Below, in pieces: positions 817 through 15,187 of a stretch of DNA of 15,926 bases. Under the pieces are notes generated by a model. That model saw only the letters and a program-made list of their open reading frames with translations, ran no database searches and was not told the origin of the DNA. The stretch spans positions 1-15,926 of the IMG/VR virus record IMGVR_UViG_3300046786_000370, one strand, 5' to 3'. How positions within the stretch are numbered: the first letter of the stretch is position 1; each line of letters begins with the position of its first letter. Origin of the DNA: a virus. Lineage: Duplodnaviria; Heunggongvirae; Uroviricota; Caudoviricetes. A program made the position numbers and the translations under genes.

Positions 817-1762
817 AAATACCGCGACGCAGTCTGTCAAGTTTAACCATTGTAGCACTAAGGTTGATTTCAGGATCACCACACAAACTGTGGTTGACTA
901 AACCTTCTTTAATGATAACAATAGCCAAGTCTTGAACGTCTTCATCTGTGCCCCAGAACTCAAGATTGCGATATAGGAACTTGTAGACTTCTTCGTATTC
1001 TTCGAGTCCAATCTTTTTACAAATGTGTTCACGTGCCTGTCGCACACGCCCATTCTGAATCATAGCGATTGCTTCTAACTTCCATTCGCTGGTATCGGTA
1101 CTTTGGCCTGCGCCAGGTAAGACTAACTTGCCACTGTTGCTGTATTGTTGAGCTGTATTAATTGCTTTACGCAAATCTGGATACATTGCCTTAACAAACT
1201 TTTGTAGCGTATCTACATCTTCTTCAGTTTCAATCTTAACGCCTTCTGTTTGTAGAATCTCTGCGATTCTAGCTAAGAAGTCTGTTTCATCTAACTGATG
1301 GAAACTAAAGCCTTGACAACGACTATGTAGCGCAGGCATAATCTTGTGTGGCATATTACAAGTTAGAATAAACTTAGCCACATTACTGTACTGCTCTAAC
1401 ATGCCACGCAATACTGCCTGTGCGTTGGGACTTAGATAGTCTGCTTCGTCGAGGATAATAACACGAAAGTCACCAAAGCTCATACTACGACAAAAGTTAC
1501 TGACTTTCTCACGAAGGTTATCGACACCGGTTTCATGACTGGCGTTAATGAACATAATGTCTGCTTTTTGTACGTCTAGTTCATTACATAGAACTTTGGC
1601 CAGTGTAGTTTTACCTGTGCCTGGAGGGCCGCTTAGTAGCAAGTGCGGAATGTTTTTGTCTTTAATCCAACCCTCGACCATAAGTTTTTGGCCAGGGTCA
1701 ATCCAAACGTAATCTTTAATATTCTGAGGCCTGTAACGTTCTACCCATAAGTAATTCGACAT
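812..1762 (-). CDS. Sliding-clamp loader AAA+ subunit (RFC small subunit / T4 gp44-like)
   Basis: N-terminal LWVERYRP (canonical WVEKYRP), Walker A GPPGTGKT, INAS motif, Walker B IILDEAD, FILTCN, SRC arginine finger, DLRKAIN; 316 aa. Confidence 0.93.
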   Translation of the reverse strand: MSNYLWVERYRPQNIKDYVWIDPGQKLMVEGWIKDKNIPHLLLSGPPGTGKTTLAKVLCNELDVQKADIMFINASHETGVDNLREKVSNFCRSMSFGDFRVIILDEADYLSPNAQAVLRGMLEQYSNVAKFILTCNMPHKIMPALHSRCQGFSFHQLDETDFLARIAEILQTEGVKIETEEDVDTLQKFVKAMYPDLRKAINTAQQYSNSGKLVLPGAGQSTDTSEWKLEAIAMIQNGRVRQAREHICKKIGLEEYEEVYKFLYRNLEFWGTDEDVQDLAIVIIKEGLVNHSLCGDPEINLSATMVKLDRLRRGIL

Positions 1763-2438
1763 AATTTATCTTTCTGTGATTTAACACTAATATTACATTA
1801 TAACTGTTTTCAACACATGCTGTCAACTTTGCTATGTTCTTTTTTTCTAATTCCAAATCTTTACCGTTTTTATTCCATGTCCAACTTGATTTGATTTCGT
1901 AAATTGTATTATCTATAATAAAATCACTAATATATAATCGACTTTCGTTATCTATAGGATCAATATAGTAGATTGATGGACCCCGACTTATATTATCTTT
2001 TATCCACTGTATTCCTTTTTCACTTTCTAATTCTTCAAGAAATTCATATTCATATGTTCCTTGATATTTTATTTCTGTTTCTTTATAGTCTAATAATGGA
2101 CACTGAAGATTGTTTTGCCAAGGAGTTTCTTCCCAATGCTTTTGCATAGTTTTAGAAAGACGTTTGTAGTGTCCGTTATTTTTTCTAGTTTCGGCACCTT
2201 TTATTTGAGATGTTTTTGTTATCCCTAATCTTGTTCTAGTTTCTAATGACTTGGCAGCATTTTCTTTATGATCGGCATTTTCAATAAATTTTTTTCTTTT
2301 TTCAGGACAAGAATTATAATGTGTAGAGCAACATTTTTTGCCGGCGGAGAATTGGAACTTTGCAACTTGACCGCAGCCATAATTGCAAAGTTCGTTAGTA
2401 ATAATAGGTGTTGCTTTGGGTATACTCTTTTTTCGCAT
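1716..2438 (-). CDS. Free-standing putative homing endonuclease, PD-(D/E)XK fold, with N-terminal Cys-rich putative Zn-binding segment
   Basis: C-terminal YISDF...IYEIKSSWTW resembles the PD...(D/E)xK catalytic motif; N-terminal CNYGCG...CC...C cluster; visibly more AT-rich than neighbours; 3' end overlaps the clamp-loader start by 47 nt. Confidence 0.7.
   Translation of the reverse strand: MRKKSIPKATPIITNELCNYGCGQVAKFQFSAGKKCCSTHYNSCPEKRKKFIENADHKENAAKSLETRTRLGITKTSQIKGAETRKNNGHYKRLSKTMQKHWEETPWQNNLQCPLLDYKETEIKYQGTYEYEFLEELESEKGIQWIKDNISRGPSIYYIDPIDNESRLYISDFIIDNTIYEIKSSWTWNKNGKDLELEKKNIAKLTACVENSYNVILVLNHRKINYVELLMGRTLQASEY
1739..1760 (-). repeat. Functional clamp-loader 5' end; one copy of an imperfect direct repeat flanking the endonuclease gene
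   Basis: 1739-1754 matches 2465-2480 at 14/16 nt, including an exact TTCTACCCA 9-mer; a further GAC matches after a 3-nt gap. Confidence 0.8.
1797..1826 (-). promoter_or_regulatory. Consensus sigma70 promoter for the clamp loader, embedded in the endonuclease CDS
   Basis: Minus strand TTGACA (1826-1821), 18-nt spacer, TATAAT (1802-1797); clamp-loader ATG 35 nt downstream of the -10, with AGAAAGA SD-like sequence before it. Confidence 0.75.
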
Positions 2439-2852: not shown

Positions 2853-3236
2853 TTACAAATCTCCTGTATTTCCTGCTCGACTATCAATATCAACCCTTGT
2901 TTCTATTTTAGTTTCAAGCTTGTCTTGAATCTCTACGCTGCCATCAGCATAGGTAATTTCCCAACGTGGCACTCCGTCTGCGCCAACAATTTCTTTTCTA
3001 CCAATTTCCTGTTCCATTGGATTCAGTTTTACTGTAGTTGTGGTTGCTTGCCCACTCTTTTTATTGTACATTTCTGTGGTGATTTGCTGGCGTGTGGCTA
3101 TAATTTTGCCGCCTGGGCCTAGTAAATCACCACGGGCGTTTCTATTACTATTGCCAACGGCCACTGATTCGCCTTTGGCATCAGCAAATGCCTGCATATT
3201 AAATTCTCTACCACGATTCGTTCTGTGTTGGCTCAT
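2853..3236 (-). CDS. Hypothetical phage protein (AVGN..NARGD.LGPGG motif)
   Basis: 127-aa ORF coupled to both neighbours (ATGA overlap upstream, stop abutting the groES start); the motif resembles conserved large-phage hypotheticals (recalled, not searched). Confidence 0.7.
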   Translation of the reverse strand: MSQHRTNRGREFNMQAFADAKGESVAVGNSNRNARGDLLGPGGKIIATRQQITTEMYNKKSGQATTTTVKLNPMEQEIGRKEIVGADGVPRWEITYADGSVEIQDKLETKIETRVDIDSRAGNTGDL

Positions 3237-3715
3237 TTTAAAAATTCCTTAATGTCTAAGTTAAACTTATAACTATCTATTCTGTGTATGCCTATCAAAT
3301 ATAGTACATAACTGGCAATACTACTGCCCCTACCTACACCATATATGATATTGTTTGATCTTAGTATTGTAACAAAATAACAAAGAAAGCGCAACAAATC
3401 TAATAAGTTTCTTTTTTCAAATTCTTGTAATTCTTCGTCAATTCTAATCCACTGTGCTGCCGTTAAATTTGGATGTAATTTTTCTATATAGTTTATTACA
3501 TCTAAGCTTTCGTATTCAACTGGCATAGCCCAATGAATATCGCTACGATCAGACGCTAGTTTGAATGGAACATCTAATCCGTATTTTTTACAAGTAGATT
3601 CAAATTGTTGAAATGACGTTTTATTGCTGGGCAATATTTTTACTTGCCGATTAGCCAACATCAACTCTACAATTTCATTATCGTCTATATACATTTGACC
3701 CTTGTTGTTTATCAT
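3233..3715 (-). CDS. Stand-alone fragment of DNA polymerase III alpha (DnaE/family C), ending just before the catalytic DxD
   Basis: RIDEEL..FEKRNL...L..FV..LRSNNIIYGVGRGSSIASYVLYLIGIHRIDS.KFNLD..EFL matches the DnaE segment GxGRGSxAGSLVAYxLGITxIDPxxYxLxFERFL; only 160 aa. Confidence 0.8.
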   Translation of the reverse strand: MINNKGQMYIDDNEIVELMLANRQVKILPSNKTSFQQFESTCKKYGLDVPFKLASDRSDIHWAMPVEYESLDVINYIEKLHPNLTAAQWIRIDEELQEFEKRNLLDLLRFLCYFVTILRSNNIIYGVGRGSSIASYVLYLIGIHRIDSYKFNLDIKEFLK

Positions 3716-3936
3716 TATCCGATGCTTAAATAATCATCAAATCCATCGCCCCTGTCTGCTTTCTGCATTTGCCGCAGATCTTGTTGAGCAAATCTAACTT
3801 CCTGTAACATAAATTCAAAGTGACCAATGACTTGTGGATTCGCGTTTGCTCTCAGAGCCACATTCATTTTTTTAATAATTGCTCGTTCACGTTCTAACAA
3901 TTCGTTCAAACGCTGTTCCGTAGTATTATCAGCCAT
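3715..3936 (-). CDS. Hypothetical helical protein
   Basis: 73-aa ORF overlapping the sufA stop by 8 nt and the dnaE-fragment start by 1 nt (TAATG); amphipathic-helix composition. Confidence 0.65.
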   Translation of the reverse strand: MADNTTEQRLNELLERERAIIKKMNVALRANANPQVIGHFEFMLQEVRFAQQDLRQMQKADRGDGFDDYLSIG

Positions 3937-4258
3937 TTTTAAAATTTACACTTTCTCCGCAACCGCAACTGTGTGCGACATGTGGATTAACTATAGACAA
4001 TCTACTATTAATTCCGATATTCTCAATGACAACTTCGCTGTCAATGACATAAGGCAATGCTTTATTATTGACAACAACAAAATGGTCGTCATCTAAATTA
4101 ACAATATGGTCACTGGTCTTAATAGCAACTGGAGTCCAAGTATATTTGTAACCTGTACATCCTTGTTGCTCTAAACCCAATTCGACACCTGGGCGGCGAC
4201 TGCGCTCAAGCATATTGACAATATATGTTTTTGCCTCTTCAGATATTGTTAGTATCAT
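3929..4258 (-). CDS. sufA: A-type Fe-S cluster carrier (SufA/IscA, HesB family)
   Basis: LTISEEA start, QGCTGYKY and C-terminal NPHVAHSCGCGESVNF: all three conserved Cys present. Confidence 0.92.
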   Translation of the reverse strand: MILTISEEAKTYIVNMLERSRRPGVELGLEQQGCTGYKYTWTPVAIKTSDHIVNLDDDHFVVVNNKALPYVIDSEVVIENIGINSRLSIVNPHVAHSCGCGESVNFKNG

Positions 4259-4578
4259 ACTTTTGCTAATACTTTTACTAGTTCTTCTTTAGTACTGCGA
4301 GCTTTAACTTCCAAGCCATGCTGAGCAACTAGTGCCAACAAATCTTTCTTAGTCATTTTGTTTAAGTCAACACGTTTGTATTTTGCTTTGACTGTAACTG
4401 GTGCAACTTCAAAAGCTGGTGTTGGTAACACCTCGGCCGGAACAACTGCTTCTTTGACAACAACTACAGCGTCTGTGCCCACTGACATATCTACTGTTGG
4501 TGTTTCAACTTTATAAGGTGCTTCTGCAGCCTTAGTATCACTCTTGCCAGTGATCCATGCTAATATTGCTTTGATCAT
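4255..4578 (-). CDS. Hypothetical protein: Ala/Val/Pro-rich linker plus C-terminal HeH/SAP/Rho-N-like helix-extension-helix domain
   Basis: DLNKMTKKDLLALVAQHGLEVKARSTKEELVKVL fits the L..MT..EL......GL......K.ELI..L pattern; overlaps sufT by 41 nt and sufA by 4 nt. Confidence 0.6.
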   Translation of the reverse strand: MIKAILAWITGKSDTKAAEAPYKVETPTVDMSVGTDAVVVVKEAVVPAEVLPTPAFEVAPVTVKAKYKRVDLNKMTKKDLLALVAQHGLEVKARSTKEELVKVLAKV

Positions 4579-4897
4579 AATCGTACATTCCCATTTCTAA
4601 TCTTGCCTCTTCGGATACTCTTTCGGGAGTCCACGGAGGATCAAACACCACTTCTACTGAAGCAGTTCTCGTAGTATTTAACTCTGCCAACGCTTTTTCT
4701 ACTTGCACACGCACCTCTTCGGGTATTTCTTCTGCGCTTGGACAAAAAGCACTTGTTAGTGTCATAGTTATTTTAACATCTGTGTCTGTAACTGTCAAAT
4801 CATAGATAAGTCCTAAGTCATAGATGTTTACCGGAATTTCCGGATCATACACTGACTTTAAACCAGCGATAATTTTATCTTTAATTTGATCATTCAT
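4538..4897 (-). CDS. sufT: SufT / DUF59 (MIP18-family) Fe-S maturation protein
   Basis: LKSVYDPEIPVNIYDLGLIY, MTLTSAFCP (conserved Cys), VVFDPPWTPERVSEEARLEMG. Confidence 0.92.
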   Translation of the reverse strand: MNDQIKDKIIAGLKSVYDPEIPVNIYDLGLIYDLTVTDTDVKITMTLTSAFCPSAEEIPEEVRVQVEKALAELNTTRTASVEVVFDPPWTPERVSEEARLEMGMYDYDQSNISMDHWQE

Positions 4898-5268
4898 AAT
4901 GTTTTGATTTTTGCTATTAAATTAGCTACGCCATTTTGGCGGCCCATACTTAATAATGGTGCTAATCCGATATCTGTGAGTGTATTTAAGCTGAAATTCA
5001 CTTGCTGTATTTGACTTGCTTGATTATACCAATCACAGATCATCGACGCAATACCTTGTACTATTAGACTGTCGCCATAGCAGTAAATTTTATCTTCAAT
5101 CTTTTCGACCCATAAATTGCTAGTGCAACCTTTGACTAAATTGACTTCATTTTTTGTAACAGAAAACACAGGCTTGGCAATGGCACCGTATTCAATGATC
5201 CAGTCATATTTGTCCATAGCGTCTTCTAACTCAAACAGCTCGTTGAACATGTTTTGAAAGTCTAGCAT
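4894..5268 (-). CDS. sufE: SufE sulfur-acceptor / cysteine desulfurase activator
   Basis: KYDWIIEYG, NLVKGCTSNLW (persulfide Cys), GDSLIVQG, GLAPLLSMGRQNG; AGGAG SD 7 nt upstream, inside sufS. Confidence 0.88.
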   Translation of the reverse strand: MLDFQNMFNELFELEDAMDKYDWIIEYGAIAKPVFSVTKNEVNLVKGCTSNLWVEKIEDKIYCYGDSLIVQGIASMICDWYNQASQIQQVNFSLNTLTDIGLAPLLSMGRQNGVANLIAKIKTL

Positions 5269-6427
5269 GTATTTCTCCTAAGCTATCTAAAGCTAATTCT
5301 ATTTCTTGCCTTGTTGTATAGCAACCCCAACTTAATCGCAATAACGCACCATTACTTAATTGAGTAACCAACGGTTCGGCACATAACTTGCCACTTCGAA
5401 TCATAATGTTATTAGCGTCTAACATCATTGTATAATCTTCTACTGTGCCTACTACTGGTTCCAAACAAAGCAATCCAGAATCTGTTTTACTAACAGGCGT
5501 AAATTGTGCTAATGATATTTGGTCGTTGATAATTTTAGCAAGACTGATGTCATGCTCTTCTATATCATTTTGATGTTCTATTAGCCATTCAACAAGCCTA
5601 GGTATGGCGCAGATAGCACTGAGATTTTGTGTACCACTTTCGAACTTAGTAGCATTCTTAGTCCAAGTTACAGAGTCTGTGCTAACACTGGTAACAGTAC
5701 CGCCACCTGGACGAACTGGATCAAAGTTTAACCAAACTGGATCTATAAGCAAACAACCTAATCCCATTGGACCATAGACTTTGTGCCAAGAGAACGCAAC
5801 AAAGTCGAATCCACTAATATCTATTCTGCGCTTACTAATGATTTGACTAGCATCAATAACACTAACAGCCGCAACTTCTAAGGCAATCTTTTTAATGGCA
5901 TCTAAGTCATTGACTAAGCCTAGTACATTGCTGACAGCGTTAACGGCAATGACTTTACTGACTGCCATTGGCTCTTGTTTAATCTTTGCTTGTAAGTCAT
6001 TTAAGTCTAAGCGTCCGTCCTTGTCCAAATTAATAAACACAACTTTCCATTTAGCGTTACCTGACTGTGTCCAAGGTAAAATTAAACTGTGATGACTGTC
6101 GATACCAACAAATACTACGCCAGAGGACATTGCACTCATAATCATAGCCGCGGCATCGTTTAATCCCTGTGTAGTGCCACTGTTATAAACAATACGCTTT
6201 TCCGGATGATTAATGTTGAGCCATTTACCAATAAGTTCTTTGCTTAGATGATACTGCTGGTCAACCCATGTACCCATGCTGTTACCACTACGATGAGCAT
6301 TACTTTTGTGATCAAGCATAAAATCTCGCTGATCTTCTGCCACTGTATACAATGTTTGGCTTGTTGCCGCACTATCCAGATATATTATATCTTGTTTGCG
6401 TTTGAAAAATGGAAAACTATCACGCAT
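5231..6427 (-). CDS. sufS: SufS-type (group II) PLP-dependent cysteine desulfurase
   Basis: IYLDSAATSQ, SNAHR, HHSLILPW, DASQ, FSWHKVYGPMG (PLP Lys), FESGTQN, IRSGKLCAEPL (catalytic Cys), RLSWGCY; 398 aa. Confidence 0.92.
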   Translation of the reverse strand: MRDSFPFFKRKQDIIYLDSAATSQTLYTVAEDQRDFMLDHKSNAHRSGNSMGTWVDQQYHLSKELIGKWLNINHPEKRIVYNSGTTQGLNDAAAMIMSAMSSGVVFVGIDSHHSLILPWTQSGNAKWKVVFINLDKDGRLDLNDLQAKIKQEPMAVSKVIAVNAVSNVLGLVNDLDAIKKIALEVAAVSVIDASQIISKRRIDISGFDFVAFSWHKVYGPMGLGCLLIDPVWLNFDPVRPGGGTVTSVSTDSVTWTKNATKFESGTQNLSAICAIPRLVEWLIEHQNDIEEHDISLAKIINDQISLAQFTPVSKTDSGLLCLEPVVGTVEDYTMMLDANNIMIRSGKLCAEPLVTQLSNGALLRLSWGCYTTRQEIELALDSLGEIHARLSKHVQRAV

Positions 6428-6851
6428 CTAATAAACTCTGCTTAATTAATTCTTTATAATCGCTAACGCCCCTGCTAGCGAGATAATACTTATCCTCAGG
6501 TTTTAATGTTCCTAAAGCATTACCATGTGTTGCAATAATTTTGCTGTTACGGATAAACATTTCAGGTCTTGCTTTTATTTTACTCTTATCAAAAGGCCAA
6601 CTACGGATCTGTATATCTGTTTCAACCCCACTGACTTCTTTTGGCACATCTAATGTACAAACACAGTCTACTTCGCTGGTTCCTTCTGCGTAGATATAAA
6701 TCTTTACTTTGAATTTAGTGTCCGGGTGTGGTTTTAATTTAATATTAGCAATACACTTGCCGTCGGTTTGTATAAACACAAACTCGTATTCAGATCGTGT
6801 AGGCACTAATACTAAATCTAAACTTTCAGCATCCAAATAGACTTTACGCAT
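6420..6851 (-). CDS. sufD: Truncated (mini) SufD: C-terminal beta-helix turns plus SufC-binding helices
   Basis: RPEMFIRNSKIIATHGNALGTL..EDKYYLASRG matches the SufD tail P.LEI.ADDV.(C/A)SHG...G......YL.SRG; position between sufC and sufS; only 143 aa. Confidence 0.8.
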   Translation of the reverse strand: MRKVYLDAESLDLVLVPTRSEYEFVFIQTDGKCIANIKLKPHPDTKFKVKIYIYAEGTSEVDCVCTLDVPKEVSGVETDIQIRSWPFDKSKIKARPEMFIRNSKIIATHGNALGTLKPEDKYYLASRGVSDYKELIKQSLLDA

Positions 6852-7497
6852 TACTTAAATCCAATTTGTTATCACTGTATTTTGCTTGTAGTTCTTTGTC
6901 GTGTGTTACCAACAATACTGAGCCGCCATTACCACAAGTTTCTGCGATTAAGTCGATGATTTTTTGACGACTGCTTTGTTCCAGGCCGCTGTCTGGTTCA
7001 TCTAGTAGCAATAATTTTGTTTTGTTTTTAAGATATACAGCTTGTACGATTTCATTCTTCTTACGTTCGCCGCCACTGGCACCGAGATTAAATTGTCGCT
7101 TTTCCCAACCTTCTGGTAAACCAATCCAATTGAACAATGATTTACTAAGTTTAATTAAATCACTGGTTGAACCCGAGACGTTTTGAACTTTTTGTATTTC
7201 TTTAAACAATGTCATAGTATTAACACCATCTATACTGGGAGGGCTTTGATGTGCCATAAAAACTCCTACTTGACTGCGTTCATGGCATTCCATGTTATGT
7301 AACTCTGTATTGTCTAAATGAATATCGCCTGTGGTAGTAATATCAGGACGACCCATGATAGCGTGTAGTAGTGTACTTTTACCTGCGCCATTTTGTCCTG
7401 TTACTAGTAAACACTTGCCCTTGGACAACTCGATGTTTACATTGTTTAAGATTTGTTTGTCGCCAATGCTCGCCGATAAGTTTGTAATTTTTAGCAT
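6844..7497 (-). CDS. sufC: SufC ABC-type ATPase of the SUF scaffold
   Basis: Walker A GQNGAGKS followed by IMG, Q-loop FMAHQSP, RQFNLGASGGERKKNEI (SufC-type signature), LLLDEPDSGL, LLVTH switch; 217 aa. Confidence 0.92.
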   Translation of the reverse strand: MLKITNLSASIGDKQILNNVNIELSKGKCLLVTGQNGAGKSTLLHAIMGRPDITTTGDIHLDNTELHNMECHERSQVGVFMAHQSPPSIDGVNTMTLFKEIQKVQNVSGSTSDLIKLSKSLFNWIGLPEGWEKRQFNLGASGGERKKNEIVQAVYLKNKTKLLLLDEPDSGLEQSSRQKIIDLIAETCGNGGSVLLVTHDKELQAKYSDNKLDLSNA

Positions 7498-8912
7498 TAT
7501 CCTATGCTGCCTTCCATGGTTACTGATAATAATTTATTTGCTTCTGCCGCAAATTCTAAAGGCAATGTGTTTAATACACTACGGCAAAAGCCGTTGACAA
7601 TCGTCGATGCCGCTTGTTCTGCATCCAAGCCACGAGTTGCTAGATAATATAATTCTTCTTCACTTACTCTGCCTGTAGTTGCTTCGTGCTCAATTTGACT
7701 GCTGTCGTTTCTACATTCTGTATAAGGAACAGTATTGCTGATACTGTCGTTGCCAATCATCAAACTATCGCATTGTGTGTAGTTGCGACTATTCTTTGCT
7801 GTTGGTGCAACACGGACTAAGCCGCGATAAGTCATTGTACTCCGACCAATGCTAATACCTTTGCTGATAATTTTACTGCGAGTATTAGCACCAATGTGAA
7901 TCATTTTTGTACCAGTGTCGGCTTGCTGATGACCTTTGGTAACTGCCACTGAGTAAAATTCTCCAATTGATCCTTCCCCTTGGAGTACGCAACTTGGGTA
8001 CTTCCAGGTAATGGCTGATCCTGTTTCCACTTGAGTCCAACTAACTCTGCTTCGTACGCCTCGACATTGGGCACGTTTTGTGACAAAGTTGTAAACGCCT
8101 CCAACTCCGTTCTCATCCCCTGGGTACCAGTTTTGTACAGTCGAATATTTGATTTCAGCCCTATCAAGGGCAACAAGTTCGACGACTGCGGCATGTAACT
8201 GATTCTCGTCACGTTGGGGTGCTGTACATCCCTCCAAGTAAGATACATAACTATCCTTATCTGCTATAATTAAGGTGCGTTCAAATTGACCGCTACCGGC
8301 ACTATTAATTCTAAAGTAAGTGCTCAACTCTAATGGGCATCGTTTGCCTTCTGGAATATATACAAAACTACCATCACTGAATACTGCTGAGTTGATACAA
8401 GCAAACCAGTTATCACTTTTAGGTACAACTGAGCCTACATATTGTTTTACCAATTCAGGATGGTGTTGTACTGCTTCATTGAAGCTACAAAAGATAATTC
8501 CTTCTTCTGCTAGTTTTTCTTTGTATGTTGTACCAATACTAACGCTGTCAAAAACTGCGTCAACTGCTACACCTGCAAGTTTAGCACGTTCATGTAAGGG
8601 AATACCTAACTTCTCAAAGTCATCTAGGATTTCCTGTGGCACTTCGTCTATACTGTTAAATTGTTTTTTAGGCCGGCTGTGATAGTAAATGTTATCATAG
8701 TCTGGGCGTGTGTATTTTAACTCAGCCCAATTGGGCTCGGTCATTGTGCTTAGTTTGTTTAGTGCATCTAGTCTAAACTCTAACAACCATTCGGGTTCAT
8801 TGTTCTTAGCACTGATAAGTCTAACGGTGTTTTCATTCAAGCCACGGCCCGTCAATTCACTTTCGACATTGGTAGTAAACCCTGCTGTGTATTCTTGTTC
8901 TAGTTCATTCAT
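7497..8912 (-). CDS. sufB: SufB Fe-S scaffold protein
   Basis: [82 protein letters not shown]; full length 471 aa. Confidence 0.98.
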
Positions 8913-10537: not shown

Positions 10538-10572
10538 TCAGTATTCCCTCCTTTACGCGGTTGATTTAGTAC

Positions 10573-10588
10573 GTATCGACTACGATAC
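10573..10588. repeat. Perfect 6-bp inverted repeat at the predicted transcription start
   Basis: GTATCG-ACTA-CGATAC, beginning 7 nt downstream of the -10 box. Confidence 0.6.
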
Positions 10589-10595
10589 ATTCATT

Positions 10596-10624
10596 ATAAT
10601 AACACTTAATTGCTTGTGTGTCAA
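10596..10624 (-). promoter_or_regulatory. Strong sigma70-type promoter heading the minus-strand operon
   Basis: TTGACA (10624-10619), 17-nt spacer, TATTAT (10601-10596) preceded by TGn (extended -10); an overlapping TATAAT at 10598-10593. Confidence 0.75.
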
Positions 10625-10633
10625 GCTAAACGG

Positions 10634-10946: not shown

Positions 10947-10954
10947 TATTTATA
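10947..10954 (-). promoter_or_regulatory. T4-type late promoter TATAAATA, 4 nt upstream of ATG 10942
   Basis: Exact TATAAATA on the minus strand followed by CCAT-ATG, no SD; flanked by a 5-bp inverted repeat GGTAT/ATACC. Confidence 0.65.
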
Positions 10955-11064: not shown

Positions 11065-12630
11065 ATGAAACGATTACTTGTTACTTTTGCTTTAACTGCA
11101 ATCGCAACTTCGGTATTGGCACAAACAACAACTACCGGAACATCGGGAACATCCAGTGGCACAACCACTGGTACAACTACAGTTATTAATCAAGGAACTT
11201 ACGATTCTAAGTCATTGGTGGATACTAATAGTACGTCTAATAGCGTGAGCACAATTAACACCAATAACGTTAATAGCGGTACTATTACCAACAATAACAA
11301 TACCAACTTAACAGGTGGTACGACTAATACCAATAACAACAATAACGTTAATAGTGGCACAATGACTAACAACAATAACAATAACAACGTTATGAGTGGT
11401 AGTGTTACCTATACAAACAATAACAACAACGTCAACAGTGGTACGCAAACGTTTAACAACAATAACGTGAACACTGGTACAATGACTAACAATAATAACA
11501 ATGTGAATACTAGCACAAGTTCTAGCACCAGTGTTAATACAAATAACAACGTTAATACTGGAACTATGACTTACAATAATAACAATGCTAGTACAAGTTC
11601 AAGCACTAACGTTAATACAAATAACAATATTAACAGCGGTACAATGACTTACAATAACAATAATGTTAATGCTAGCACAAGTTCAAATACCAATGTAAAC
11701 ACAAATAATAATGTTAATACAGGTGATATGACTAACCGTAATATTAATACTAGCACTAGTACAAGCACCAATGTTAATACTAACAACAATATTAACAGTG
11801 GCACAATGACTTATAACAATAACAACGTGAACACAAGTACCAGTGTTAATACAAATAATAACAACAATACTAGCACAAGTACTAACACAAATTATCAGTA
11901 TGGTACGATGACTAACATCAACCAAAATACTAATAATAGTACCAGTGATAATACAAATAGAAATATTAACACAGGTGATATGACTAATCGTAACATTAAT
12001 ACAACTACTGCTACGACAAGTAACACTAATACTAATATTAACAGTGGTACAATGACTAACATTAATCAAAATACCAACAACGGTACAATGACTAATAACA
12101 ATAATAACGTCAATCAAAGTACCGCTACTAATACTAACACCAACGTTAACCAAAATATTAACAGTGGCGAAATGACTAATCGAAATATCAACGAAACAGT
12201 TATAACGCAGAAAGTTATTCAACCACCGCCAACAGCAGTTGCTCCGGCAATGATGAGTGGCGGTAACAATGACTTATGTTCAACTGGTAGCAGTGGATCA
12301 GTACAAACACAGATCTTTGGTGTTAGCTCAGGTGGTACTATACGTGATTTAAATTGCGAACGCTTAAAGTTATCCAAGACATTGTTTGACATGGGCATGA
12401 AGGTGGCCGCAGTTGCTACTATGTGTCAGGATCGTCGTGTATTTGATGCTATGATGGCAGCAGGAACACCTTGCCCATACGAAGGCAAAATTGGCGAACA
12501 AGCTAAAGCGGCTTGGGAAGAAAACAAAGATAAAGTTCCACAAATAGAAGAAGCGAGCAAATATGAAACTGCAAAAAACATTGGCCTTGGTGCTTTGTTG
12601 GGCATCCTTGTTCATAACGCTTTCAAGTAA
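11065..12630 (+). CDS. Exported Asn/Thr-repeat protein with a four-Cys C-terminal domain and hydrophobic tail
   Basis: Sec signal MKRLLVTFALTAIATSVLA-Q; ~320 aa N/T/S repeats; C-domain PPPTAVAP..DLC..QTQIFG..NCERLKLSK.L.DMGMKVAAV..MCQD.RVF.AM..AGTPCP; tail IGLGALLGILV; AGGAG SD. Confidence 0.85.
   Translation: MKRLLVTFALTAIATSVLAQTTTTGTSGTSSGTTTGTTTVINQGTYDSKSLVDTNSTSNSVSTINTNNVNSGTITNNNNTNLTGGTTNTNNNNNVNSGTMTNNNNNNNVMSGSVTYTNNNNNVNSGTQTFNNNNVNTGTMTNNNNNVNTSTSSSTSVNTNNNVNTGTMTYNNNNASTSSSTNVNTNNNINSGTMTYNNNNVNASTSSNTNVNTNNNVNTGDMTNRNINTSTSTSTNVNTNNNINSGTMTYNNNNVNTSTSVNTNNNNNTSTSTNTNYQYGTMTNINQNTNNSTSDNTNRNINTGDMTNRNINTTTATTSNTNTNINSGTMTNINQNTNNGTMTNNNNNVNQSTATNTNTNVNQNINSGEMTNRNINETVITQKVIQPPPTAVAPAMMSGGNNDLCSTGSSGSVQTQIFGVSSGGTIRDLNCERLKLSKTLFDMGMKVAAVATMCQDRRVFDAMMAAGTPCPYEGKIGEQAKAAWEENKDKVPQIEEASKYETAKNIGLGALLGILVHNAFK
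11260..12200 (+). repeat. Degenerate in-frame peptide repeats N-[VI]-N-[ST]-G-[TDE]-M-T-[NY]-N
   Basis: 11 GxMT cores plus GTIT, GSVT and GTQT variants, separated by NNNN/NVNT/TSTS tracts. Confidence 0.85.
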
Positions 12631-15187
12631 AGCTCAAGTAGATAGTACTACCGGTAATTTGATAAACTTTACCGGTACACCTACTGCTACGACTAGTAAC
12701 TGGAACAATGGTGTTTATGTTAACCAATTAGGTTGTTTTGGCGGTAATTCTAGTACAGGTTATTGCGGCCCTTACCCTAACGTTCAAACCAATGGTAACA
12801 TTAACTTTAGTTATGGACAGGTTAACTTAAATCAAATTGTCAATATAAACACAGCATTGGCCGCCGGCGGGTCGGGTGTACAACTCAGTGGATTCAACTT
12901 TGCGTTTACTGCCAAGAACGGTAATGGTTGGGATGATGGTAGACAAGACTATCTATCCGCCTATGTTAAGTTTTTTAATTCTGCTGGTGGCTTGGCAGCA
13001 AACTATGATTATACAAGTCAGACTAATCAAAGATATAACTGGACTAACTTTAACTTTAATGAAACATTTGCTACACCGGTACTCGCTTCACAGTTCAGTA
13101 CAGCACAGGTAGGTTTTATTGGTAAAGATAACAACTACTGGGCAGGTCCTTATGGTCCGGAAATTAACAATGTAAGTTTTAGTTTAAAATATCGTGTTGA
13201 CCCTTGTGCTCTTAATGCCGCTTATAGTCCAAACTGTGCTGGCTTTAATAATATTATAGAAAGTAATAACTTATTCAATAGTAATGCGTGGGGTCAGTCG
13301 ATGGTGCAAATGGCCGCTGTTAACGTAGCATTACAAAATGCTGGCATAGGCGCTCAAGTACATGGTATCAATTATTCTTTTGATTGGGCTGTAGGTAATA
13401 GTCAATGTACTAGCATGTTCTTATTCTGGTGTGATGGCTGGACTAATAGTAACATCAATGTCAATGTTAGAATGAACACTGCCAGCAATTCATTATTATT
13501 GAATAGAAATTATGGTTTTTCCGGAGAAAATGTTAGTGGGCGTGTTGAGGACAAATTCTTATTACCTAGTACAATGAATCAAACAGCATTGGGTTATGTA
13601 GGTATGGCCAGCAGTGGTTGGGGTGATGCACAAGCTGGTAATTTTAGAGCAAGTTTAATTTTCACACCCGATCCTTGTACTGCTAATCCTTTATACAGTA
13701 CACAATGTAGTGGCTACGCAGTTGCTTATGCTAAGAATATGTTATTAGGTTCTACAGTAGCCAGTGCAAGTGGTCCTATTGTATCTTCTGGTAGCACTTC
13801 TATGTCAAGTAATACTGGAACAATAGATCAAAGTAATCCACTACCGGATCAACAACAGACTCAACAACCACAGCAAACTCAACAGCAACAATCAAGTCCT
13901 CCTCCACAAGATGCAACTCAACAAACAGCAGTGGCGCAAATGGATCCATCACAACCTAGCCCAACACAAGCAGGTCCAGCTTCTACAAGTCCACAACCTG
14001 CAGGAGGACCAGCACAAACTACCACAGCATCGGCTTCGACTCAACAATCAGGTCCAGGAGCAGGTCCAAGTGCTGGGCCGAGTAAACTAGCAATGAGTGT
14101 ATTAAAAGCAAGTCAAGAAAAAGATAAAGCTACACAACAAATGGCCGTACAAAATGCCGCTAAAACATTAGAAAATGCTACACAAAGTTCACAGGCAAGT
14201 AGCAATCTTGCGATTAGTATAAATCAAGATATGAGTGCTAATAGTGCTACTGCTGCCGCAACGTTTGCTAGCCAACAAACACAAACTAGTCAGCAAACTG
14301 CTACACAAACAACTCAGCAACAACAACAAACTACACAGACTAGCACACAAACTCAGCAAGCAAGTAGAGGTGGGCCGCAATTACAACAACAGCAACAAGA
14401 AACACAACAAGCAGTAGTTCAATCTACTAATATTGTACAATTACAAGCACCACAACAACAAGAACAGCAACAAACACAAAGTCAAACTTCTAGTAGCGTA
14501 GTAAGATTGTTACCTCCTGTTCAACAAGAACAGCAACAAACACAAAGTCAAATGACTGCCGGTATGATGCCTATGCCACAGAGTACATATACTCCTCCAC
14601 AACAACAAACACAGGAAACACAGAGTACTCAAGTTAGTATGTTAAAACCTCCCGCACAACCACAAGTTGAAATACAGCAACCTAGCAGTGGTACAGGACT
14701 TACATTATCTAGAAATCCATTTGCTTATAATCCTTTAGGATCAATAAATGTATCTAGCATGACTATGCCGCAAACACAACCTGCGCCAACATTCCAGTTC
14801 CGCAATGAAACAAAGACAGAAATAGAAGCTCCACAAATGCCTGTTGCTAGTTTTAGTGTTAGCCGTGCTGGTAATCCATTATCTGAGATATTGATGCAAC
14901 AAAGATTTGAATCAATGCAAAGCACAATAACACCATCAATGAGCTCAGTTAATAAAAACGCACAATCAAATGAACTAGCAGGCGGTGTTGATATTGCATC
15001 AATTGCCACTGTACCAAGTGGATTTAATGCTTATTCAATTGTGTTAAAAGATGCGGCATTTTATGAGCCCAAAGAAGTTTATAAAAATCAACGTACAGTT
15101 GATAATGAGAGAGTGTTGCGTGGACTAACACGTGGCAGTGATAGCTTACATCAGCGTATGGTTGATCAGCAATATAAAGGAAATTAA
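12563..15187 (+). CDS. Large exported protein: two beta-rich domains each ending in a DPC...C knuckle, Gln/Thr/Pro-rich stalk, globular C-terminus
   Basis: Signal MKLQKTLALVLCWASLFITLSSKA-Q; GKDNNYWAGPYGP motif; DPCALNAAYSPNCAGF (13199-13246) and DPCTANPLYSTQCSGY (13670-13717); Q-rich ~13850-14700; 874 aa. Confidence 0.85.
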   Translation: MKLQKTLALVLCWASLFITLSSKAQVDSTTGNLINFTGTPTATTSNWNNGVYVNQLGCFGGNSSTGYCGPYPNVQTNGNINFSYGQVNLNQIVNINTALAAGGSGVQLSGFNFAFTAKNGNGWDDGRQDYLSAYVKFFNSAGGLAANYDYTSQTNQRYNWTNFNFNETFATPVLASQFSTAQVGFIGKDNNYWAGPYGPEINNVSFSLKYRVDPCALNAAYSPNCAGFNNIIESNNLFNSNAWGQSMVQMAAVNVALQNAGIGAQVHGINYSFDWAVGNSQCTSMFLFWCDGWTNSNINVNVRMNTASNSLLLNRNYGFSGENVSGRVEDKFLLPSTMNQTALGYVGMASSGWGDAQAGNFRASLIFTPDPCTANPLYSTQCSGYAVAYAKNMLLGSTVASASGPIVSSGSTSMSSNTGTIDQSNPLPDQQQTQQPQQTQQQQSSPPPQDATQQTAVAQMDPSQPSPTQAGPASTSPQPAGGPAQTTTASASTQQSGPGAGPSAGPSKLAMSVLKASQEKDKATQQMAVQNAAKTLENATQSSQASSNLAISINQDMSANSATAAATFASQQTQTSQQTATQTTQQQQQTTQTSTQTQQASRGGPQLQQQQQETQQAVVQSTNIVQLQAPQQQEQQQTQSQTSSSVVRLLPPVQQEQQQTQSQMTAGMMPMPQSTYTPPQQQTQETQSTQVSMLKPPAQPQVEIQQPSSGTGLTLSRNPFAYNPLGSINVSSMTMPQTQPAPTFQFRNETKTEIEAPQMPVASFSVSRAGNPLSEILMQQRFESMQSTITPSMSSVNKNAQSNELAGGVDIASIATVPSGFNAYSIVLKDAAFYEPKEVYKNQRTVDNERVLRGLTRGSDSLHQRMVDQQYKGN
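14456..14552 (+). repeat. Exact 31-bp direct repeat within the Gln-rich stalk
   Basis: CAACAAGAACAGCAACAAACACAAAGTCAAA at 14456-14486 and 14522-14552 (66-nt period, in frame; QQEQQQTQSQ twice). Confidence 0.9.

Follow-up and report, generated by a model that had tools for sequence, protein, structure and literature searches.

The window analysed here, the first 15,926 nucleotides (15.9 kb) of the 79,926-bp IMG/VR record IMGVR_UViG_3300046786_000370 (labelled G000), encodes on its minus strand a block of seven genes for the assembly of iron-sulfur (Fe-S) clusters, namely sufB, sufC, sufD, sufS, sufE, sufT and sufA. SUF is the bacterial Fe-S system for stress and iron limitation. The block is part of a genuine phage genome and is reproducibly bordered on both sides by genes of the virus, and its own genes are under purifying selection in the viral lineage. 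On balance, it is probable that this is a genuine phage-borne SUF pathway, kept by selection in T4-like jumbo phages of ~330-360 kb and serving mainly to mature Fe-S enzymes of the phage itself. An initial annotation of this DNA had proposed a complete viral Fe-S assembly line, and its viral interpretation is supported by the analysis described below.

Components of the suf block

On the minus strand of the window, overlapping genes follow one another without interruption between ~10537 and 812, and within this run positions 3929-8912 comprise eight open reading frames (ORFs), seven suf genes and one non-suf ORF, in the order B-C-D-S-E-T-x-A (x being an unrelated small ORF). The scaffold subunit gene sufB (7497-8912, 471 amino acids (aa)) was identified by the NCBIfam SufB equivalog and by alignment to E. 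coli SufB, and sufC (6844-7497, 217 aa), encoding an ABC-type ATPase, by its best NCBIfam model (TIGR01978 sufC) and conserved motifs. The short sufD, referred to as mini-sufD (6420-6851, 143 aa), was recognized from a viral profile compared with E. coli SufD, an AlphaFold2 (AF2) model and Foldseek. These are followed by sufS (5231-6427, 398 aa), a type II pyridoxal phosphate (PLP)-dependent cysteine desulfurase (Pfam Aminotran_5, 5e-71; TIGR01979), sufE (4894-5268, 124 aa), a sulfur acceptor (Pfam SufE, 4.8e-21), sufT (4538-4897, 119 aa), a DUF59 maturation factor (Pfam FeS_assembly_P, 7.2e-19), and, beyond the non-suf ORF (4255-4578), a sufA-like gene for an A-type Fe-S carrier (3929-4258, 109 aa; Fe-S_biosyn, TIGR00049 and phrog_17776). 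All junctions overlap (by 1, 8, 8, 38, 4, 41, 4 and 8 nt), including 8 nt between sufB and a Trp-rich ORF and 8 nt between sufA and ORF 3715-3936.

The ORF list and the family scans thus agree with the initial annotation on seven suf genes in one ~5-kb block with overlaps of 1-41 nt at every junction, the eighth, non-suf ORF having been overlooked. Its description of the pathway as complete holds in that all seven components are encoded, and has to be amended for SufD, which is cut to its C-terminal third (143 aa). In the Pfam and NCBIfam scans, the correct family was the best match for each of the seven suf genes. Pfam gathering scores were passed by SufB, SufS, SufE, SufT and the SufD core fragment; SufC was labelled only as a generic ABC ATPase, and SufA reached 26.1 bits with Fe-S_biosyn, 0.2 under the cut-off of 26.3. 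For SufA, TIGR00049 was the best NCBIfam model, followed by the SufA and IscA models, and phrog_17776 matched at 7e-15. This protein shares 25% identity with ErpA, whose gene lies in another part of the contig, and the three ligand cysteines (C...CGC) of the two line up.

The residues on which cluster assembly depends in E. coli are retained. Phage SufB scored 820 bits against the NCBIfam equivalog (cut-off 717) and 630 bits, at about 60% identity, against E. coli SufB (5awf_A). Yuda et al. (2017) reported R226, N228, C254, Q285, W287, K303, C405 and E434 as functional residues of E. coli SufB, and E432 and H433 as redundant (PMC5571166). In the 5awf_A alignment the functional residues correspond to R201, N203, C229, Q260, W262, K279, C381 and E410 of the phage protein, which are invariant across 11 viral copies, and E408 and H409 are kept as well; the N-terminal CxxCxxxC segment of E. 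coli SufB falls in an alignment gap and is missing from the phage protein. SufC, with 88.7 bits to E. coli SufC, carries the Walker A motif, Q-loop, SGGE signature, Walker B motif (LLDEPDSG) and H-loop histidine, all of which are kept in relatives.

The sulfur relay is equally recognizable. The closest PDB matches of SufS are SufS enzymes, with the PLP lysine and active-site cysteine aligned, and the motifs bearing them (SWHKVYG and RSGKLCAEP, respectively) recur in almost every relative examined. The persulfide cysteine of SufE lies in GCTSNLW, aligned opposite GCQSQVW of E. coli SufE and likewise kept in relatives, giving the pairing of a type II desulfurase with a SufE acceptor cysteine that is characteristic of E. 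coli-type SUF. The conserved Cys-Pro of SufT is also present. Every catalytic or ligand residue tested was found, as the initial annotation had claimed for the key motifs. Cysteine desulfurases supply several sulfur pathways (PMC11446229; PMC10219651), and SufS and SufE could in principle deliver persulfide for tRNA thiolation, thio-cofactors or DNA/RNA modification. Such a use is very improbable here, since it leaves the conservation of the Fe-S-specific SufB, SufC, SufD, SufA and SufT unexplained, and no thiolation enzyme was seen beside the suf block.

Viral setting, spread and selection

With an estimated completeness of 22%, the record points to a genome near 350 kb. The genes flanking the suf block encode PhoH, a gp44-type clamp loader, a gp31-type co-chaperonin and a cell-wall hydrolase. 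The gene order hydrolase-suf-PhoH is identical in five other contigs (L007, L008, L010, L011 and L012) and, in a further one (L056), through the sufB end of the block, the six contigs originating from six different metagenomes. Because the suf borders are repeated in all six wherever the sequence reaches, a chimeric join is excluded. Genes for the T4 capsid protein Gp23 are present in the relatives G001, G005, G006 and G007 (E 1e-80 to 1e-97); the larger relatives measure 236-340 kb, among them G007, whose 328-kb record is complete and has terminal repeats. When the remainder of the 80-kb fragment was scanned in two rounds with Pfam and PHROG, no unambiguous structural hallmark emerged, and viral identity therefore rests on the relatives and on synteny; matches to 'head maturation protease' PHROGs occur together with families of ATP-dependent proteases, and ClpP may be what they represent. 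The IMG/VR record, the synteny shared by at least six contigs and the capsid genes of the relatives bear out the assumption of the initial annotation that the contig is viral, and neither cellular nor chimeric.

The probability that cellular contamination, or a chimeric assembly fusing phage sequence with a suf operon of bacterial origin, has produced this arrangement is vanishingly small. Such a reading draws on the fact that Fe-S assembly systems are normally cellular, and that the sole GenBank 'isolated phage' with sufBCDS, MW495066, is disputed as bacterial (PMC13623518). However, both suf borders of the window are overlaps with phage ORFs that are reproduced across samples, the GC content is uniform (0.36-0.42) across these borders, and SufB, SufC and SufS fall in virus-only clades with no more than 67% identity to any sampled cell.

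Candidate viral precedents were set aside. Microcystis phage MaAM05/PhiMa05 (MW495066, L002, 258.8-273.9 kb) was rejected because the record is disputed in print, and its context looks bacterial; its sufBCDS-iscU genes adjoin panB, panC and pxpA, its SufD is full-length, and the critique that treats the record as a bacterial fragment counts the Fe-S system among its cell-like features (PMC13623518). Matches of sufB by tblastn in Staphylococcus, Listeria and Enterococcus 'phage' records were short or terminal, with 42-45% identity, consistent with prophage-flanking or host DNA. A megablast search of the window against GenBank phages returned no match.

Within IMG/VR the arrangement is recurrent. 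A scan with SufB retrieved 50 loci, 32 of which hold at least five suf genes, the kind of locus for which the initial annotation had recommended a search. A quick IQ-TREE analysis of SufB placed 25 viral representatives on one side of a branch, opposite 49 others (Shimodaira-Hasegawa-like approximate likelihood ratio test (SH-aLRT) 93.7), and FastTree grouped 42 viral SufB rows (support 96), 37 viral against 53 cellular SufC rows (support 99) and 34 of 36 viral SufS rows (support 98). These trees, of which those of SufB and SufS had been recommended earlier, gave virus-only clades; among the cellular sequences sampled, taken from the 80 top-scoring genome matches and mostly from Alpha- and Gammaproteobacteria, no donor emerged. 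The nearest cellular SufBs are 63-67% identical to the phage protein. Divergence within the operon is uneven, SufB being far closer to its cellular homologues than SufC or SufS.

Four SufBs from IMG/VR are placed in the cellular part of the tree, which suggests separate captures or contamination. The SufB of L048, one of the four, groups with Pelagibacteraceae and not with the viral sequences. L048 belongs to the complete relative G007 (328,149 bp, terminal repeats) and encodes a 192-aa SufD; either recombination or a capture of its own may account for it, and it possibly gives a clue to the host.

Pairwise Nei-Gojobori ratios of nonsynonymous to synonymous substitution (dN/dS) lie between 0.015 and 0.31 for all seven suf genes, and together with the kept catalytic residues they speak against the relaxed selection that would have counted against the earlier reading. 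Between the otherwise close relatives L008 and L010, sufE has a dS of 1.5 and a dN of 0.24, against a dS of 0.08-0.34 for the other suf genes, which indicates, as judged from these two sequences, replacement of a single gene by recombination and a mosaic sufE. Sister phages carry an additional gene for a CGFS monothiol glutaredoxin of the Grx4 type (101 aa) between sufB and sufC (L008, 9144-9449). It is also found in L009, L010, L054, L013-L016, L018 and L049, being located after sufE in L018 and L049, and is not on the 80 kb of this contig. In L012, the sufB/sufC slot used by the glutaredoxin elsewhere holds an unrelated 263-aa ORF.

The genes adjoining the block, all on the minus strand, are phage genes. 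Upstream of sufB, the Trp-rich 70-aa phage ORF (8905-9117; phrog_7749 at 9e-6) is found at the same position in five relatives. Downstream of sufA and ORF 3715-3936 lie a dnaE-like fragment (3233-3715; phrog_11127, a family known from phages), ORF 2853-3236 and the gp31-type head-morphogenesis co-chaperonin (2484-2852), the last of which corresponds to the 'groES' of the initial annotation, correct also in its dnaE fragment. The linkage of the dnaE-like fragment, ORF 2853-3236 and the co-chaperonin to suf persists in three diverged viral clades. Between the co-chaperonin and the clamp loader, a 240-aa ORF (1716-2438, minus strand) with weak matches to DUF7487 and a head-closure PHROG has no counterpart in syntenic relatives, where the two neighbouring genes abut, and looks like a mobile insertion. 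On the plus strand, 11065-15187 holds two large ORFs of 521 and 874 aa without a Pfam family, one of which matches phrog_20531; the pair is partly conserved in L008-L010.

The non-suf ORF between sufT and sufA (4255-4578, minus strand, 107 aa) gave no Pfam or NCBIfam family match. Its N-terminus is of low complexity, its C-terminus has a Rho_N/SAP-like helix-extended-helix pattern, and its phage-family matches are confined to the C-terminal 40 aa. Its atlas neighbours are virus-only clusters, some with Rho_N/SAP, and these resemblances serve as leads only. The ORF occupies this position solely in the closest clade and has the highest dN/dS of the block (0.18-0.44).

The reduced SufD

The mini-SufD consists of the last beta-helix turns and two C-terminal helices of a protein that, when full-length, comprises an N-terminal helical domain, a complete beta-helix and C-terminal helices. 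A phmmer search of the mini-SufD against PDB found no match and a profile was required; the profile of 11 viral copies matched E. coli SufD residues 282-395 with an E-value of 3.9e-16, and SufB with 7e-5. Since sufC and sufS overlap both ends of the gene, a missing exon could not be accommodated. In E. coli SufD, H360 is functional and C358 redundant (Yuda et al.; PMC5571166). The former corresponds to the invariant His109 of mini-SufD, and the latter is replaced by Ala in the 143-aa form and is Cys in the 193-aa forms. The short gene is itself constrained, with dN/dS of 0.035-0.105.

Structural modelling is consistent with this assignment. The AF2 model of mini-SufD (predicted local distance difference test (pLDDT) 93.6) shows several beta-helix turns and two helices, and in a Foldseek search it came closest to the SufB and SufD structures in 5awf/5awg (TMq 0.6-0.7). 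In a complex model with SufB residues 190-471, an ipSAE of 0.66 was obtained against 0.01 for the best control; of 80 solved complexes, 58 attained that mark, as did 2 of 110 mismatched pairs. Three runs share at least 95% of contacts, with a partner pLDDT of at least 85, and the modelled interface joins SufB 383-415 to mini-SufD 86-118, so placed that H109 faces E408-H409-E410. Because SufBC2D has already been solved, the score measures likeness to a known interface and not binding by the phage copy; this pass may reflect resemblance to 5AWF instead of independent evidence of binding.

Comparison across the viral clade reveals that SufD has been pared stepwise, through forms of about 430, 280, 193 and 143 aa. 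Most contigs encode a SufD of 384-431 aa, two one of 276-286 aa and four one of 192-194 aa, while lengths of 143-156 aa are found in the clade of the window and its sister clade. SufC shortens alongside, from 231-244 to 227-237 to 217-220 aa. Among 1.84 billion cluster representatives, just seven proteins (154-193 aa) matched the mini-SufD profile at E <=1e-30. The truncation series amounts to a natural deletion experiment and indicates which portion of SufD is indispensable to the scaffold.

The loss of two thirds of SufD, the parallel shortening of SufC and SufD across the viral clade, and the far greater divergence of SufC, SufS and SufD than of SufB from cellular homologues could also describe a remodelled machine that performs no de novo assembly, and acts as a cluster repair or transfer device, or as a modulator plugging into host SufS, SufE or SufD. 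We regard this as quite improbable, as the residues established as necessary for assembly de novo, the SufD histidine included, are all retained, the full sulfur relay of SufS, SufE and SufB Cys229 is kept, and the predicted interface matches the canonical assembly site.

Fe-S clients, transcription and comparison with known systems

The suf-bearing phages encode many potential recipients of Fe-S clusters. Matches to radical S-adenosylmethionine (SAM) proteins number three on this contig and 17, 15, 11, 23 and 22 in the larger relatives G001, G003, G005, G006 and G007, respectively. In suf-bearing relatives these genes often stand in tandem arrays, and several of the radical SAM proteins of G001 carry SPASM or Fer4_12 auxiliary-cluster domains. 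One such array (L057; G001:144001-164000) comprises some ten radical SAM paralogues, 320-850 aa in length, and in several of them a SPASM-like domain sits at the N-terminus instead of its usual C-terminal place. The contig further encodes, outside the window and on the minus strand, a proteobacterial-type 7Fe ferredoxin, FdxA (28396-28719 of the record), and an A-type carrier, ErpA (29946-30269), both of which pass their NCBIfam equivalog cut-offs (168 bits against 135 and 164 bits against 117, respectively). An FdxA-type ferredoxin was present in all five records checked. The FdxA and ErpA genes are a hint that the host may be a proteobacterium and that a second route of cluster carriage may exist.

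Two purposes had been proposed in the initial annotation, supply of the phage's own Fe-S enzymes and upkeep of those of the host, and the listing of clients that it called for supports the first better than the second. With 11-23 radical SAM proteins in relatives, and three together with FdxA and ErpA here, a phage-run supply for phage clients is the best reading. A role mainly in keeping host Fe-S enzymes working under the oxidative stress or iron scarcity of infection is less favoured and, in our judgement, unlikely. It has in its favour that SUF serves bacteria under stress and iron limitation, and that the contig also carries host-type metabolic genes, including those for isocitrate lyase and a dicarboxylate symporter. 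Moreover, this is how individual Fe-S genes of viruses have been interpreted before (PMC8940887; PMC5332604). A host role leaves unexplained why a whole pathway, and not a limiting step, is found in a lineage with so many radical SAM proteins and its own ferredoxin and ErpA. Provision for phage clients and support of the host are not mutually exclusive.

Pfam and NCBIfam scans of the suf block found no regulator family, in agreement with the initial annotation, and no IscR, OxyR or Fur context. The sole sizeable intergenic gap upstream of the suf-containing gene run (10538-10633) contains a predicted sigma-70-type promoter with an extended -10 element (10596-10624, minus strand; TTGACA-17-TATTAT preceded by TG, 11 of 12 matches). 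In six relatives its -35 TTGAC and its extended -10 are preserved, although the region as a whole is only 53% identical. The element resembles an early host-polymerase promoter, a function and timing predicted from its sequence. As a candidate for late transcription, a single T4 late-promoter motif, TATAAATA at 10947-10954, was rejected as not above chance. Given the conserved promoter and the absence of an iron or redox regulator, host polymerase probably transcribes the operon early and without control by IscR, Fur or SufR, which would allow the escape from host iron control envisaged earlier.

From these data, and by analogy with E. coli SUF, we infer the assembly activity, its timing and its recipient proteins as follows. 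Briefly, SufS would take sulfur from cysteine as a persulfide and pass it to SufE, which would load SufB at Cys229. The cluster would then be assembled at the interface formed by Cys381 and Glu410 of SufB and His109 of the pared-down SufD, with SufC providing an ATP-driven conformational change. SufA, SufT and the contig-encoded ErpA would hand clusters to client proteins. With the operon probably transcribed early by host polymerase, independently of IscR, Fur and SufR, its main job would most likely be the maturation of phage radical SAM enzymes, many of them with extra SPASM clusters, and of the 7Fe ferredoxin.

Several observations weigh against a working phage-run pathway of this kind. 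Only SufB passed its NCBIfam trusted cut-off, the other six suf proteins falling below theirs (SufC 160 bits against 212.8, SufD 32 against 222, SufS 237 against 475, SufE 42 against 160, SufT (SUF_assoc) 121 against 143 and SufA 55.2 against 58.8). Two thirds of canonical SufD are gone, the 217-aa SufC is ~30 C-terminal residues short of bacterial SufC, and SufC and SufS are just 30-36% and 24-30% identical, respectively, to the operon partners of the nearest cellular SufBs; judging by this divergence, both could have altered function. Overall, promoter-like matches in the region (33) do not exceed chance expectation (32.7). The link between suf and client load is a co-occurrence within one lineage, and a control comparing suf with radical SAM content in 13 long capsid-sharing contigs yielded only 13-53% fragments of the same ~350-kb kind of phage in which the suf region was not captured.

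A more specific version of phage ownership has about an even chance of being correct. It envisages a long-owned and re-engineered pathway, in which SufD and SufC have been pared to a module serving the SufB site, giving a minimal SufB-SufC-miniSufD scaffold that would be expressed early, free of host control, and feed a bacterium-like load of radical SAM proteins and ferredoxin.

Earlier reports of Fe-S genes in viruses have each concerned an isolated gene, be it for a carrier, IscU, SufE or an unaccompanied SufB. Nishimura et al. (2017) described marine T4-like genomes with an A-type carrier, IscU, PaaD/DUF59 and up to 12 radical SAM genes, one genome combining an A-type carrier, a DUF59 protein and 12 such genes (PMC5332604), and sufE has been reported in viromes of oxygen minimum zones (OMZ; PMC8940887). 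The phages described here likewise pair Fe-S biogenesis with many clients, the A-type carrier and DUF59 being common to both, and an Fe-S economy in phages is accordingly no new concept (PMC5332604). Those reports concern single carrier, scaffold or acceptor genes, whereas a whole pathway including SufBCD, the ATPase and the desulfurase is encoded here; a complete scaffold-plus-desulfurase pathway is not in PMC5332604. In the open-access literature, no full viral suf operon, nor sufB in connection with jumbo, huge or giant phages, was found. The nearest case is the lone, host-like SufB of group C amoC-phages from freshwater (155-338 kb), which groups with host homologues (bioRxiv 10.64898/2026.06.18.733297), in contrast to the present SufB with its virus-only clade and six partners. 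A full SUF system as a stable, virus-specific module shifts the boundary of phage self-supply from substrates to cofactor assembly, and calls for caution with viral-contamination filters that use suf genes as cellular markers.

Among cellular systems, SmsCB of M. jannaschii (PDB 9H78) offers a parallel in combining a reduced SufBD-type scaffold with an ABC ATPase, and SmsB is among the structural matches of the mini-SufD model (TMq 0.67). SmsB is, however, a homodimerising subunit of 316-321 aa, while the phage keeps a full SufB and a much smaller SufD-derived partner; nor is the phage SufB an SmsB acting as sole SufBD-family subunit, scoring 181 bits against the SmsB cut-off of 650 and passing the SufB models. 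The Gram-positive sufCDSUB system with SufT (S. aureus; PMC4982691) is alike in linking a DUF59 SufT to sufBC and in the association of SufT with high Fe-S demand, and differs in that SufU is absent from the phage, where SufE is used. A close counterpart is E. coli SUF (sufABCDSE; SufBC2D, PDB 5AWF/5AWG), with which the phage shares the same six components, the mapped functional residues, a type II SufS paired with SufE, and an A-type carrier. Relative to this system, the phage SufD has 143 instead of 423 aa (residues ~282-395) with Cys358 changed to Ala, SufC has 217 instead of 248 aa, SufB is without the N-terminal CxxCxxxC, and the operon is virus-encoded, with sufT and an unrelated small ORF inside it and the order B-C-D-S-E-T-x-A.

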